From an uncultured Candidatus Saccharibacteria bacterium (lineage in GTDB: Bacteria > Patescibacteriota > Minisyncoccia > Phycocordibacterales > CAYSCM01): a stretch of DNA of 64,000 nt. The notes under the pieces were generated by a model that worked only from the letters and a program-made list of their open reading frames with translations, did not search any database and was not told the DNA's origin. The stretch is from contig CAYSCM010000001.1 in assembly GCA_964429815.1 (NCBI GenBank), positions 128,001 through 192,000 of the forward strand, written 5' to 3'. The stretch's first letter is position 1, and the number at the start of each line of letters is the position of its first letter. The position numbers and the translations under genes were made by a program. Positions 41,988 through 45,396 of this stretch are shown piece by piece.

Positions 41988-42249
41988 GGGGGTTGGGCTA
42001 ATAGTATCGAAAAAAGAGATCCTGAGGAGTTGGTAATGGCGAAGGGTGGGCGACGTAGCGACTGGCGCAATGGAAAACGAAAAGACCACGAGGAGTGTGA
42101 GAGGTTCAATCTCAAGCGTAAATCCTTTGAGCGTGGCTGCATCCGGTGCGGGCAAGGTCCCGTGGACCATACCCGCCGATGTGTACGATGTAAAACCCAA
42201 GAATCGAGGCCCGAATAGGGCCTCTTACTTTTTAGGGTATACTTTTCCC

Positions 42250-42651
42250 ATGCTCAACCCATTCCCCTACGTTCTCTCCTTCGGTGCATTCGCACCGCTG
42301 CTTATTCGACTTTCTGTTTCTCTCTTTCTCATGCTTGCCGCACGCCACCTCTGGCAAAATCGGCAGCGCGCAGTCGCGGAACTTCTCCCCAAACTAGGCT
42401 CGCTCGCGTGGCCAAAATTCTATGGCCTCCTCGGTATAGAAGTGGCTGCAGCGCTCTCACTTTTTCTCGGATTCTATACGCAAATCGGTGCCATAGCCGG
42501 TATGGTTGTCTTTCTGGGACTCCCCTACGCATTGAAGCGTTTCCCCTCGCTCTCTCCCTGGACCTACGCGCTTCCGCTTCTTCTTGCGCTCCTCTCTCTG
42601 ACTCTTCTCATAACTGGGGCGGGTATCTACGCCTTCGACTATCCGTTTTAA
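42250..42651 (+). CDS. DoxX-like small membrane protein
   Basis: 133 aa from an internal ATG; 4 TM helices. Confidence 0.6.
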   Translation: MLNPFPYVLSFGAFAPLLIRLSVSLFLMLAARHLWQNRQRAVAELLPKLGSLAWPKFYGLLGIEVAAALSLFLGFYTQIGAIAGMVVFLGLPYALKRFPSLSPWTYALPLLLALLSLTLLITGAGIYAFDYPF

Positions 42652-42655
42652 CAAG

Positions 42656-42729
42656 TCCGCCCGGCAGGACTCGAACCTGCGACCTTCTCCTTAAAAGGGA
42701 GCGGCTCTACCAAACTGAGCTACGGGCGG
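42656..42729 (-). tRNA. tRNA-Lys (anticodon TTT); C1:G72 first pair
   Basis: Reverse complement CCGCCCGTAGCTCAGTTTGGTAGAGCC-GCTCC-CTTTTAA-GGAGA-AGGTC-GCAGGTTCGAGTCCTGC-CGGGCGGA. Confidence 0.82.
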
Positions 42730-42807
42730 ATGTGCGCTCACATTATAGCGAAAGGATGAATTGCTCAAGCGGAAAGGAAGAAACCCCACTTGCGTGGGGC
42801 TTCAAGG

Positions 42808-43437
42808 TTAACCTTCGTTCTCGAATCTCTCTTTAACGAAAGTAAGGAACTGTGAACTTACGACCGTCATGGCGGTCATGAGGCCGTATAAGATTACGAA
42901 GGTTATCACGGTCCAGAATGTTGACAGGGTCCTGCTGAAGATGGTCATCCAAGCGAAATAGAATACCATAACTGCGATGAGCCAGCTGCCAACATCCAAG
43001 TTGCGAAGTGTTATGGGACGAAGCCATTCGCATCGTTCGAAATACTTCGGCTTGCACTGCGCCCGAACATAAAAACGGGTAATGATCGCAGCGATGCCGA
43101 GGGCACTCATGAGAACAAACCACCAGTGTGATAATTCTCCCATTTTCAGTATCGCAGCGTACTCCAAGAAACCTAGCATGTAGGGAAATGCAACATCGGG
43201 GAAACGTGGTGTCGTTCTCATAATGAGTATCCACCAAGAGTATTCCGTTACTACCAGAAGTATTGCACACAATACTGCAAAAGCTTGAAGATAGAGCAAC
43301 ACGGACTCTTTTGTTTCTGCCATCCTCAAGATCAATCCACCAAGAGCGATGCTTTGGATTACTCCAAGCGAGGTGAGGTATGAAGAGGCAAAAAGTTCTT
43401 CAGAACGTCTCCGGAACTCGGCAGCATTTAGGGGCAT
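42808..43437 (-). CDS. Multi-pass membrane protein (paralog A of a tandem pair)
   Basis: MPLNAAEFRRRSEELFASSYL..., 6 TM helices; intact copy. Confidence 0.7.
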   Translation of the reverse strand: MPLNAAEFRRRSEELFASSYLTSLGVIQSIALGGLILRMAETKESVLLYLQAFAVLCAILLVVTEYSWWILIMRTTPRFPDVAFPYMLGFLEYAAILKMGELSHWWFVLMSALGIAAIITRFYVRAQCKPKYFERCEWLRPITLRNLDVGSWLIAVMVFYFAWMTIFSRTLSTFWTVITFVILYGLMTAMTVVSSQFLTFVKERFENEG

Positions 43438-43489
43438 GACAGCCTCCATAGTCGGTTAGAACTTTTCGAAGCGACCTTACCGCAGAATC

Positions 43490-43517
43490 TTGCAAAAATC
43501 AATAAATATGTTATCAT
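43490..43517 (+). promoter_or_regulatory. sigma70-like promoter (TTGCAA-16-TGnTATCAT) for the divergent micro-peptide gene
   Basis: -35/-10 with extended TG; shared 14-mer aaaaatcaataaat in the spacer is repeated at the paralogous locus. Confidence 0.55.
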
Positions 43518-43553
43518 ACTTTCTGGCAAGCTAGATTTTTGAAGGAGACGCAG

Positions 43554-43670
43554 ATGCAAGAAAGCCCTCAAAAGGAACAGGGGTTTTGGGATCGGTGGGG
43601 TACTCTGGTCTTCATCGGTCTACTCTTTGGGACCATGGCTGTAGTCGCGGCAAGCAAGCACTTCGCTTAG
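43554..43670 (+). CDS. Single-TM micro-protein (38 aa)
   Basis: RBS ggaga; MQESPQKEQGFWDRWGTLVFIGLLFGTMAVVAASKHFA; own terminator; paralog of the peptide at 44524. Not in the ORF track (<60 aa). Confidence 0.55.
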   Translation: MQESPQKEQGFWDRWGTLVFIGLLFGTMAVVAASKHFA

Positions 43671-43683
43671 CGTCCCACGAACG

Positions 43684-43719
43684 GGCCCCGATGGTTTTTC
43701 ATTGGGGCCTTTTCTTTTT
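43684..43719 (+). terminator. Rho-independent terminator after the micro-protein gene
   Basis: ggccccgatg-gttttt-cattggggcc then ttttcttttt. Confidence 0.8.
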
Positions 43720-43785
43720 CCTTAAATAGAAAGAATGAAACGCTCAAGCGCGAAAAAATAAGCCCCGCATACGCGGGGCTCGGGT

Positions 43786-44416
43786 TCAGCTTTGGCGTTC
43801 AAATTCTTCCTTAAGCGACCTGAGGAAGTTTGAACTTATGATGGCCATCGAAACCATGAGGCCGTACAGGATGATGAAAGTTGTCACGGTCCAAAACGCT
43901 GACAGTGTTTTGCCAAAGATGGCCATCCATAGAAAATAGAAGGCCATCACAGCTACGAGACCACTGCCAATGTCAAGGTTGCGTAGCGTCAGTGGCCGGA
44001 CCCGGTCGCATTCTTCGAAATATTTTGGTTCGCATTGCCCTCGTACGTAGAAGCGCGTGATGATCGCTATGACGGCTGAGGCGGTCATACTGATATACCA
44101 CAGGGGTTCCTTGCCTATCAGCCAGCGCAATCGACACATACTCAAGGATTCCTAGCAGGTACGGAAAGACCGCGTCGAGAAAACTTGGTGTTTTCCTCAT
44201 AATTATTAGCCACCAAGTATATTCAGTTACCACCAGAAGTATTGCAAGTATTGCGGTCATGCCTTCTAACATGAGAACTGTTGAGGTTGGCGATTCAGCT
44301 ATTTTTAGTACGAGTCCACCAAGGGCGACACTTTGAATTACGCCGATCGAACTGAGATAAGACCCTGCAAACATTTCCTCGGAACGTCTTCTGAATTCCG
44401 CTGCGTTTAAAGGCAT
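43786..44416 (-). pseudogene. Frameshifted paralog B of the membrane protein (split into the 43973..44416 and 43786..44145 ORFs)
   Basis: Both reading frames align to paralog A (N-half MPLNAAEFRRRSEE..., C-half ...ITRFYVR(A/G)QC(K/E)PKYFE...) with a frame break near 44100-44145 caused by extra bases relative to copy A. Confidence 0.6.
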
Positions 44417-44460
44417 CGATACCTCCTTAGATCAGATTCGGGGCAAGTTTACAGGAAATA

Positions 44461-44488
44461 TTGTAAAAATCAATAAATGTGATATAAC
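44461..44488 (+). promoter_or_regulatory. sigma70-like promoter (TTGTAA-16-TGnTATAAC), paralog of the element at 43490
   Basis: Same architecture and the shared aaaaatcaataaat core. Confidence 0.55.
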
Positions 44489-44523
44489 TGGCTTGAAAGT
44501 TCTACTTCTTATTGGAGGTATCC

Positions 44524-44631
44524 ATGGCCCGTGAATCCAAAGGTTTCTGGCAAACCTGGGAAGCTCCTATTGGGGCTGCACTTATGCTCCTGGTACCCGC
44601 CATAGTGTTGGTTCTACTCATCAAATGGTGA
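44524..44631 (+). CDS. Single-TM micro-protein (35 aa), paralog of 43554..43670
   Basis: RBS ggaggt; MARESKGFWQTWEAPIGAALMLLVPAIVLVLLIKW. Confidence 0.55.
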   Translation: MARESKGFWQTWEAPIGAALMLLVPAIVLVLLIKW

Positions 44632-44652
44632 GGAAAACGAAACCAACTCGAA

Positions 44653-44690
44653 GAGGCCCGTCGCTTCAGCTGGGCCTTTTCTTTTTTATT
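44653..44690 (+). terminator. Rho-independent terminator
   Basis: aggccc...gggcct then tttctttttt. Confidence 0.7.
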
Positions 44691-45396
44691 AAATCGATAA
44701 AATAAATTGCTCAAGCGCGACGGGGAGTTCGTGTTCTCCGCGACGAGCGTCGTGGTAGAGGCGGACAAGCTCGTGGGAGAGTGTCAAAAGCTCTTCTCGC
44801 GTGTAATTTTTCGCAAAACTATGTGCTTTTGAAAATACAAACGGCGAAAGCCCGCTCTCTTTGGCATTTTTCGAGGCGCTCGCGAGGAGCATCCCTTTCA
44901 CGATCCAAAAGAGCATTCCGTGAAGCTGCTCCTCCTCGGCGCCGGTTGCCCGCGCCTTTTGATACAAGACCCAGGCATTTTTCCGATCACGGCGACCGAG
45001 GGCGTCAGTGAACGCAAACACGTCAAACGATTCCTTCTTTCCCTTCGGCAACTCAACGATTTCTACTTTTTCTGCATGCCTTTCGATCTTTTTTTTAAGT
45101 TCGGCCTTGGGTTTGCTCTGAAGCACGATAAAAATATTTTCCGACTGCGCAAAATCAGCGATCTTCTCAGCAACAGACCCATCGGCCTCCTCTAAAAGTT
45201 CATCGAGGACAATCACAATTTTGTCGTGAAAGAGGTCCTGCGCACCCGCGTATTCTTCAAGCCTTCCGCTCTCAAGATCCTCGGGGGTTATGCGCACGAT
45301 GGATGGCTCATCGTAGCGACGACTCAGCCCTTCGGTGAGGGTATCGAGTTTTTCGAGCGCTTTCGCACGGTCATTGCCAATAATTGCGTAGAACAT
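44689..45396 (-). CDS. holA: DNA polymerase III delta subunit (HolA)-like
   Basis: MFYAIIGND..., C-terminal ...FAFTDALGRRDRKNAWVLYQKA...MLFWIVKGMLL. Confidence 0.75.
   Translation of the reverse strand: MFYAIIGNDRAKALEKLDTLTEGLSRRYDEPSIVRITPEDLESGRLEEYAGAQDLFHDKIVIVLDELLEEADGSVAEKIADFAQSENIFIVLQSKPKAELKKKIERHAEKVEIVELPKGKKESFDVFAFTDALGRRDRKNAWVLYQKARATGAEEEQLHGMLFWIVKGMLLASASKNAKESGLSPFVFSKAHSFAKNYTREELLTLSHELVRLYHDARRGEHELPVALEQFILSI

Follow-up and report, generated by a model that had tools for sequence, protein, structure and literature searches.

Two related membrane-protein/micropeptide cassettes at the holA stop codon of a Candidatus Saccharibacteria genome: a possible mobile toxin/antidote-like pair

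Results

Anatomy of the array

We analyzed a 64,000-nt stretch of DNA from an uncultured Candidatus Saccharibacteria bacterium (contig CAYSCM010000001.1, positions 128,001 to 192,000; hereafter the window, numbered from its first letter). Two related two-gene units lie here in tandem at the stop codon of holA, the gene for the DNA polymerase III delta subunit (44689–45396, minus strand). Aligning the units with each other gives a period of 967–979 nt, and this alignment, together with direct reading, located every element of the two ~1-kb units that a first-pass annotation of the window had described. Along the plus strand each unit holds a terminator, a minus-strand gene for a membrane protein, an intergenic region of 107–116 nt, a micro-ORF (a very short open reading frame) and a second terminator. 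The units alternate with three direct repeats (DR) of the holA 3′ end, giving the structure DR1–unit 1–DR2–unit 2–DR3 at positions 42743–44721.

The array begins with DR1 (42743–42775, minus strand), a relic of the last 10 codons and the stop codon of holA (FPLEQFILSL). Unit 1 follows with the intact membrane gene 1 (42808–43437, minus strand), whose 209-aa product has six transmembrane (TM) helices and whose hairpin terminator lies at 42780–42803 (minus strand, −18.5 kcal/mol, z = −4.8). Its start is MPLNA, with GGAGG 5 nt upstream, as in every homologue; we rejected an ATG at 43449, which would give 213 aa, because it overlaps the ribosome-binding site of the MPLNA start. An interlocked bidirectional promoter (43482–43517, both strands) separates this gene from micro-ORF 1 (43554–43670, plus strand), which has a GGAG ribosome-binding site and encodes a 38-aa, single-TM peptide, MQESPQKEQGFWDRWGTLVFIGLLFGTMAVVAASKHFA. 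The micro-ORF 1 terminator is the hairpin at 43683–43710 (plus strand, −24.3 kcal/mol, z = −4.3).

Between the units lies DR2 (43722–43754, minus strand), a second relic of the holA 3′ end (FALERFILSI). In unit 2, the membrane gene (43786–44416, minus strand; hairpin terminator at 43760–43781, minus strand) is split into a 147-aa ORF (43973–44416) and a 119-aa ORF (43786–44145). Its interlocked promoter (44453–44488, both strands) is followed by micro-ORF 2 (44524–44631, plus strand), with a GGAGG ribosome-binding site and a 35-aa, single-TM product, MARESKGFWQTWEAPIGAALMLLVPAIVLVLLIKW. The terminator of micro-ORF 2 (44650–44681, plus strand, −19.1 kcal/mol, z = −2.6) probably also serves the convergent holA, and DR3 (44689–44721, minus strand; VALEQFILSI) is the live 3′ end of that gene. 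Hairpin/U-tract terminators thus end all four genes, with folding z-scores of −2.6 to −4.8 against shuffled controls, and a single-TM peptide of 35–38 aa with a good ribosome-binding site and its own terminator is present in each unit, as first annotated. An assembly chimera explains neither the tandem units nor the repeats, because the repeats are only 75–84% identical, too diverged to mislead a k-mer assembler, and because the same structure recurs in unrelated samples.

A membrane-protein family with a predicted channel-like fold

A word-indexed search with the membrane protein found only the protein itself. A profile search of 1.84 billion representative proteins yielded 266 matches (E ≤ 1e-3), about nine of them close (30–40% identity), and the named relatives, scattered over many phyla, are all called hypothetical. 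The TM domain has no match beyond noise in Pfam, NCBIfam or PADLOC. The family is marked by RRSxxxFxxxYLTxxGIIQxVALG in helix 1, EYxWW, RRTPxxxDxxIPYxLGxxE and a Cys-containing cytoplasmic loop; TM1 is its most conserved helix, and the predicted topology has six helices with both termini inside the cell. An AlphaFold model (pLDDT 93, pTM 0.86; top Foldseek match with probability 0.97) shows a six-TM fold with TM1 at its core, as in the TMEM175/DUF1211 family. From this model, the membrane protein probably has a TMEM175-like fold.

The claim is one of fold and not of membership in the TMEM175 family, since sequence methods establish no link between the two families, and several points count against a closer tie. 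No DUF1211 match appeared among 50 family members even at E ≤ 10, and a profile search of PDB sequences found no TMEM175 chain, returning only spurious endothelin-receptor matches. The TM1 signature of TMEM175 is RxxxFSD, which the consensus of our family (FxxRxxxSFPxVYLTxISIIQGVALG) resembles without being that signature. Six-helix bundles can also converge on a similar fold.

In distant members, the TM domain forms the C-terminal part of fusions with Trypco2/Pepco, DUF6988/PDC-S52, Mrr_cat or WD40 domains, and PADLOC matches fall only in these fused N-terminal domains (candidates PDC-S52 and PDC-S02). The name Trypco2 (Pepco) comes from a description of trypsin-co-occurring domains in conflict systems (PMC7159879); more recent work has shown the domain to be a protease-activated death effector (PMC12642450). 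Two distant-member neighbourhoods contain HicAB, PIN and transposase genes or SMC-like, SLFN and ResIII genes. At the level of single proteins, N-terminal Trypco2/Pepco, DUF6988 (PADLOC PDC-S52) or Mrr-like nuclease domains occur among P0048, P0091, P0169, P0018, P0049, P0051, P0058, P0076 and P0080; five of these (P0049, P0051, P0058, P0076 and P0080; 545–576 aa) share a recurrent N-terminal region of ~300 aa that has no Pfam match.

Interlocked promoters

The first-pass annotation had placed a sigma70-like divergent promoter with a shared core before each micro-ORF, and both promoters are present. The 64 kb contain the 25-nt promoter block TTGYAAAAATCAATAAATRTGWTAT at two places only, one in each unit (0 expected from shuffles). 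In unit 1, the plus-strand micro-ORF promoter has its −35 box TTGCAA at 43490–43495, a 16-nt spacer and TGt-TATCAT at 43512–43517; on the minus strand, the membrane-gene promoter has its −35 box TTGATT at ~43497–43502 and TAAGGT 17 nt further on. Unit 2 has the same layout, with TTGTAA (44461–44466) and TGa-TATAAC (44483–44488) for the micro-ORF and TTGATT, a 16-nt spacer and TAAACT for the membrane gene.

This crossed −35 design recurs in seven of the seven intergenic regions compared: TTGnnn on the membrane-gene strand is followed, after 0–2 nt, by nnnCAA, which corresponds on the opposite strand to the −35 box of the micro-ORF promoter. Both promoters have a −10-like hexamer 16–17 nt further on, each on its own side and usually with an extended TG. 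Consequently, each −35 box sits within the opposing promoter's spacer, two RNA polymerases could hardly bind together, and expression of the two genes is likely to be either/or. A conserved 14-mer had been taken at first as a sign that the peptide is 'the regulated unit', a view that we abandon: what aaaaatcaataaat represents is the −35 box of the membrane gene (TTGATT, minus strand), located inside the spacer of the micro-ORF promoter, and it therefore belongs to a bidirectional promoter from which both genes are read.

In the window, the micro-ORF promoter is closer to consensus than the membrane-gene promoter. We dropped the idea that the micro-ORF promoter is the stronger one at every locus, because in a single-unit relative (locus L014) the membrane-gene promoter is a perfect consensus and surpasses it.

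A micropeptide partner

The two peptides of the window share little except GFWxxW. Nucleotide identity between the micro-ORFs is 48%, about the level of unrelated sequence in a gapped alignment, compared with 66–67% for the membrane gene. When the peptide family was sought elsewhere, as first proposed, comparable micro-ORFs were found at L004, L011–L014 and L016: a divergent ORF ~90–115 nt from the membrane-gene start, with an ATG, a ribosome-binding site, a polar and usually basic N-terminus and then one hydrophobic stretch of TM length. The peptides are 42 aa long in L004, 35 aa in L012 and L013, 38 aa in L014 and 34 aa in L016, and L011 has two paralogues, both starting MMKWW. A strict test (ATG start, ribosome-binding site, complete ORF of 30–45 aa, hydrophobic stretch) was positive in 6 of 8 close-clade units and in 3 of 12,820 background windows, taken from 80 related loci and the rest of the window; its criteria were set after examples had been seen, which tells against it, and the gap spans three orders of magnitude.

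The sister membrane proteins P0009 and P0224 (loci L012 and L016; 65% identity) have homologous peptides (...PGL(V/L)YEFTMC...). Because peptide homology tracks the membrane proteins in this way, it supports translation and a functional link and counts against a purely RNA role. The micro-ORF is, as far as these comparisons reach, a conserved partner of the membrane gene. No convincing divergent micro-ORF was found at the distant family members' loci L005–L010, which suggests that only the close clade has the peptide partner.

Two loci show irregular micro-ORF regions. L012:3633–3885 (minus strand) has two micro-ORFs in tandem on one transcript, the second of which (...DERPGLVYEFTMCAISLAGLGFLVYGLSLQ) is homologous to the L016 peptide and has as its only in-frame start a GTG that opens the TM segment. 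At L013, the gene caller fused the micro-ORF region into a 76-aa ORF.

Alternatively, the micro-ORFs might be untranslated, and their ~195-nt transcripts might act as regulatory RNAs on the membrane gene in the manner of a type I antitoxin RNA. Each transcript has the strong promoter, short length and terminator that such an RNA would need, and the divergent overlapping arrangement resembles some type I toxin–antitoxin loci. The weak nucleotide conservation tells the other way, as the ATG, the ribosome-binding site, a frame of 31–42 codons and the TM-length stretch are all kept across loci in spite of it. Moreover, the mapped promoters place the two transcripts apart from each other, a search within and behind the micro-ORFs found no antisense promoter, and the transcripts have no Rfam match. 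We consider a purely regulatory RNA very improbable.

Insertion between holA and tRNA-Lys

The PolA neighbour in the window matches only Patescibacteria (Paceibacteria, Kaiserbacteria, Taylorbacteria and similar) among species-representative genomes, with a best identity of 60%. The gene order PolA–holA–tRNA-Lys–(DoxX)–SpoU is kept in relatives, where holA follows PolA in 64 of 80 loci, and none of the 80 relatives has the membrane gene. Several have empty sites, with only 3–16 nt from the holA stop codon to tRNA-Lys (3–120 nt in relatives), and others carry 0.2–3.7 kb of unrelated cargo there. G+C content is ~47% across the array and 53–58% in both flanks. Conserved synteny, empty sites, absence of the membrane gene from the 80 relatives and low G+C together mean that the 2-kb array is, by comparison with these genomes, an insertion between holA, its target gene, and tRNA-Lys(UUU) (42655–42729, minus strand), which forms its left border and was identified by ARAGORN, Rfam and the relatives' synteny. 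A family-pattern scan of the representative genomes gave no match, and the source genome is not among the species representatives.

Integrases usually use the 3′ end of a tRNA. The first-pass annotation had placed the module next to tRNA-Lys, as a typical variable spot; the location is correct, and the point of insertion is the holA stop codon upstream of the tRNA.

The junction is variable across Paceibacteria-like genomes (L017–L096), with 0 to 3.7 kb of unrelated cargo, including two different six-TM proteins and a 256-aa protein resembling helix-turn-helix proteins, and the strand of the tRNA differs between lineages. At the tRNA-Lys position of two relatives (L040:9888–9961 and L060:9849–9922), ARAGORN called a 'tRNA-Stop (anticodon tta)'. 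We rejected a suppressor tRNA-Stop(UUA) as a register artefact, since alignment shows the same anticodon loop, CTTTTAA, as in tRNA-Lys(UUU). Beyond the tRNA, a listed 201-aa ORF (42046–42651, plus strand) overlaps the SpoU methylase gene on the opposite strand. Of this ORF, the C-terminal ~133 aa alone resemble a real gene; they have a weak match to DoxX and agree with a 133-aa gene call in Logan contigs and with DoxX-like genes at the same place in relatives.

Bounding repeats and a proposed route of integration

Related cassettes are bounded in the same manner at other host genes. Copies of the host gene's last 10–35 codons bracket five of seven close-clade loci (the window, L004, L011, L012 and L014), and such gene-end repeats are seen in unrelated metagenomes. 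At L012, the end of a YkuD gene (DIGTKVVVRD before the stop codon) is repeated 1288 nt away as NIGTKVVVRD; L014 has two versions of the cysS end, YEVTDTAEGPKVTPRE and, as the repeat, YEVTDTSEGPKVTPRE, each up to the stop codon; and at L004 at least 30 codons of a 241-aa gene are repeated. L011 has four copies of the end of a 185-aa gene (FGVLFNYAEIQ before the stop codon), which separate one full unit from remnants of others. This decayed array occupies L011:232–1905, at the 3′ end of the gene.

We compared live and relic repeats in eight pairs covering 116 codons, and found 36 differing codons to be synonymous and 19 not. When as many base changes were placed at random in the live copies, a mean of 9.6 differing codons were synonymous, with a maximum of 20 (5000 simulations). 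The excess of synonymous differences indicates that the relic copies diverged while still coding; in sequence, they behave as orthologous gene ends from other lineages and not as decaying target-site duplications.

Related cassettes use at least five different host genes as targets, which counts against a single integrase. No recombinase gene lies within 4–6 kb of any close-clade locus (a search of the flanks and not of the rest of the genomes). The number of targets and the lack of a nearby recombinase together favour homology-driven integration or a helper encoded elsewhere. A cassette could enter as a small circle carrying its own version of the host-gene end, and a Campbell-type single crossover within the host gene's 3′ end, either homologous or by a recombinase supplied in trans, would keep the host gene intact and leave a relic copy behind. 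By this route, the two units of the window would stem from two integrations, or from one integration and a later unequal crossing-over. Integration of a circle by single crossover is the simplest route to the repeat pattern, and we give it an even chance of being correct.

The first-pass annotation had called the locus a tandem duplicated module. The two tandem units bear this out, and the description is incomplete in that the cassette is bounded by copies of the holA 3′ end. Plain duplication in place, followed by divergence, would dispense with a second integration and make the repeats mere by-products. Units 1 and 2 are indeed each other's closest relatives (62% identity, against at most 41% to anything else), the whole array is periodic, and unequal crossing-over between DR1 and DR3 would give exactly the observed alternation of three repeats and two units. 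The starting state of one unit between two repeats would still need an insertion that duplicated the holA end, however, and the three holA-end copies differ largely synonymously, like orthologous ends from different lineages. The same array with relics is found at another host gene in L011. As related cassettes with like bounding repeats occur at other host genes, serial integration is at least as likely as duplication in place. We regard in-place duplication as possible, with the balance tilted against it; it concerns the origin of the second copy only, and not the nature of the cassette.

A genuine frameshift and repeated decay of the membrane gene

One extra base at ~44122 breaks membrane gene 2, which has no other lesion; its N-terminal part is read in frame 0 (44123–44416) and its C-terminal part in frame +1 (43789–44121). 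Removing one base restores a 209-aa protein that aligns without gaps to copy 1 (62% amino acid identity). Both halves are equally conserved relative to copy 1 (66–67% nucleotide identity), and the lesion is therefore recent relative to the split between units 1 and 2.

The annotated indel that splits the second copy into two overlapping ORFs is confirmed, and the question whether it was a sequencing error or a genuine frameshift at ~44100–44145 is settled in favour of the latter by the agreement of five assemblies. Independent assemblies of three sequencing runs (SRR12313479, SRR12313480 and SRR12313482) are 100% identical to the window over 3.6–9 kb, extra base included, and two NCBI assemblies encode the same split products. 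A sequencing or assembly error is further excluded by the site GCGCTGGCTGATAGG, which is not a homopolymer, and by a search of 5.8 billion protein clusters that found copy 2 in no intact form. Programmed frameshifting lacks support, with no slippery motif at GCG CTG G CTG ATA GGC.

Damage to the membrane gene recurs in 4 of ~10 units: by frameshift in unit 2 of the window and in L014, by deletion in the second unit of L011 and by truncation in L015. The micro-ORF is retained in three of these four.

Several relatives illustrate stages of decay. The frameshifted membrane gene of L014 (L014:3906–4603, plus strand) gives MPLNTAEFRKRSEDLFPGAYLTSLGIIQNVTLG in frame 1 and continues in frame 0, while neither the divergent 38-aa micro-ORF nor either promoter looks damaged. 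Database protein P0012 (200 aa) covers just the downstream part of the gene. The second unit of L011 has kept its promoter and an intact 40-aa micro-ORF and has lost the membrane gene. Two samples each hold two cassettes at different host genes and in different states of decay, L004 and L015 in SRR28401816 and L011 and L012 in Ga0210057; one population or community can therefore hold several insertions.

A toxin/antidote-like reading of the pair

That the array has the cassette anatomy described above, and that the peptide is the membrane protein's partner, we consider very probable. We read positions 42743–44721 as two related, mobile two-gene cassettes of ~0.97 kb, in a Paceibacteria-like genome of the candidate phyla radiation (Patescibacteria), encoding a toxin/antidote-like membrane pair, a reading to which we give slightly less than an even chance. 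The membrane protein would be an ion-conducting and potentially harmful effector, the micropeptide its intramembrane inhibitor or antidote, and the pair a toxin/antidote module of the addiction or defence type. Copy 2 would then have lost its effector gene and kept its antidote gene.

Five features together argue for a selfish or conflict-type module rather than a housekeeping one: mobility and patchiness, coupled expression, fast divergence of a peptide that tracks its partner, fusion of distant members to conflict-system domains and decay of the units. Of a generic protein–protein toxin–antitoxin pair, in which one product would neutralize the other, the adjacency and coupled promoters of the two genes were found, along with their co-divergence. 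The polarity is suggested by the micro-ORF having outlasted the membrane gene in three of the four decayed units, which points to a costly or dangerous membrane protein and a protective peptide; with the opposite polarity, such losses of the membrane gene should be lethal. From these sequence patterns, a toxin/antidote or defence function with the membrane protein as effector is a tentative assignment, somewhat more likely wrong than right. The suggestion in the first-pass annotation of a toxin/immunity pair or a small-protein regulator of a transporter is partly upheld: explanations that join a membrane protein to a small single-TM peptide are still the best kind available.

The roles may instead be reversed, with the micropeptide as a membrane-damaging toxin, similar to a leaderless bacteriocin, and the six-TM protein as its immunity protein. 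SdpI gives immunity to SdpC in this way, and membrane immunity proteins also exist for leaderless bacteriocins. The peptides would suit such a role in being short (31–42 aa), hydrophobic, often Trp-rich and fast-evolving, and in having strong promoters, good ribosome-binding sites and their own terminators, and a six-TM protein of ~200 aa is a typical format for immunity. The decay pattern, however, runs the other way: the single unit of L014 has a frameshifted membrane gene beside an intact peptide gene, and the second unit of L011 has kept the peptide after deletion of the membrane gene, although a cell that lost immunity but kept the toxin should die unless protected by another copy. The layout of the peptides, a polar N-terminus and then a TM helix at the C-terminus, is that of a regulatory micropeptide and not of a secreted one, there are no genes for export or processing in the unit or its flanks, and the membrane protein matches no SdpI or CPBP/Abi model in Pfam. 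The TM domain also occupies the effector position in the conflict-system fusions of distant relatives. Reversed roles are, in our view, unlikely.

Another possibility is ordinary physiology, in which a cation channel or transporter and its small regulatory or stabilizing subunit travel as useful cargo on a cassette. KdpF for KdpABC, MgtS and MgtR for MgtA and AcrZ for AcrB are such small subunits or regulators. The predicted TMEM175-like fold is consistent with this possibility, as are the metabolic neighbourhoods of some distant members, and the interlocked promoters might do no more than fix how much of each product is made relative to the other. Small proteins that partner membrane transporters are well known (PMC12648545). 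A useful physiological module is harder to reconcile with extreme patchiness (0 of 80 relatives; ~10 close homologues among the 1.84 billion representatives), repeated inactivation of the membrane gene, fusion of distant members to conflict-system domains and quick divergence of the peptide. We judge this explanation improbable.

Several observations weigh against the toxin/antidote-like reading itself. The unit of L011 with an intact membrane gene has a micro-ORF that is apparently frameshifted in a run of seven Ts, with an intact micro-ORF paralogue 1 kb away. The promoter strengths at L014 mean that an antidote made in excess is not general. Two of five distant-member neighbourhoods are ordinary metabolic contexts, and searches of phages, plasmids, viral contigs and viral folds found no relatives. 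L015 and L016 have no bounding repeats, and neither a circular form nor a recombinase was seen.

Discussion

The unannotated family with its channel-like fold, its conserved micropeptide, the interlocked promoters and the cassette with gene-end repeats are real, and we infer the function. The fullest version of our interpretation, in which an unrecognized class of recombinase-less ~1-kb cassettes of Patescibacteria, each carrying its own version of the gene end, insert by single crossover into the 3′ ends of housekeeping genes and are kept there by a new type of addiction or defence pair, a TMEM175-fold channel that a co-evolving single-helix micropeptide keeps shut, under an either/or promoter switch, is doubtful as a whole. 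If true, it would give a first functional handle on an unannotated membrane-protein family that is the presumed effector end of conflict fusions in many phyla, and no prokaryotic protein of TMEM175 fold would have been shown earlier to have a micropeptide partner of its own. It would also add a conserved, unannotated micropeptide family to genomes of the candidate phyla radiation, where small ORFs are routinely missed, and suggest that tiny recombinase-less cassettes may move between streamlined genomes while leaving essential genes undamaged.

Comparison with known systems

In predicted fold, the cassette protein is like the TMEM175/DUF1211 K+ channels (CmTMEM175, PDB 5vre), with no detectable sequence similarity to them; where TMEM175 has RxxxFSD, TM1 of the cassette family has RxxxSFPxVYLTxxSIIQG. 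We know of no micropeptide partner of TMEM175, and a literature search for a link between TMEM175 or DUF1211 and defence found nothing relevant. The micropeptide itself recalls KdpF, MgtS/MgtR, AcrZ and the eukaryotic phospholamban and sarcolipin, which are single-pass peptides of 30–50 aa whose target is a polytopic membrane protein (PMC12648545); small membrane-protein regulators and the cassette peptide alike have a polar N-terminus in the cytoplasm and then a TM helix. Unlike the genes of KdpF-type regulators, the cassette peptide gene is divergent from an interlocked promoter, moves with its partner, evolves fast and outlives the partner gene.

Toxin–antitoxin modules with membrane toxins (hok/sok, tisB/istR and protein–protein types) share with the cassette a compact, mobile two-gene unit, coupled expression, patchy distribution and frequent decay. 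Type I systems place a toxin peptide under an overlapping antisense RNA; no antisense RNA is evident in the cassette, whose small hydrophobic peptide is more likely antidote than toxin. To our knowledge, a six-TM, channel-like putative toxin matches no described toxin–antitoxin type. Bacteriocin/immunity pairs are not a match either, with no SdpI or CPBP (Abi) hit and no export or processing genes nearby. Among anti-phage systems, no PADLOC model matches the TM domain itself. The conflict-system TM effectors (Trypco2/Pepco- and STAND-linked) include distant members of the family as C-terminal fusions; unlike these, the window proteins are stand-alone TM domains that have a micropeptide instead of a sensor or protease partner.

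As a mobile unit, the cassette comes closest to CIMEs and microCIMEs, att-flanked elements devoid of recombination genes that accrete in tandem at gene 3′ ends in streptococci, for example at fda and tRNA-Lys (PMC7563491). Like them, it has no recombination genes, carries at either end an att-like direct repeat copied from the 3′ end of a target gene that stays intact, and stacks in tandem with a repeat between units. Unlike CIMEs, its unit is only ~1 kb, no integrase-bearing partner element was seen and at least five target genes are used. In contrast to a fixed att core, the cassette repeats look like diverged orthologous gene ends, a better fit to homology-driven integration.

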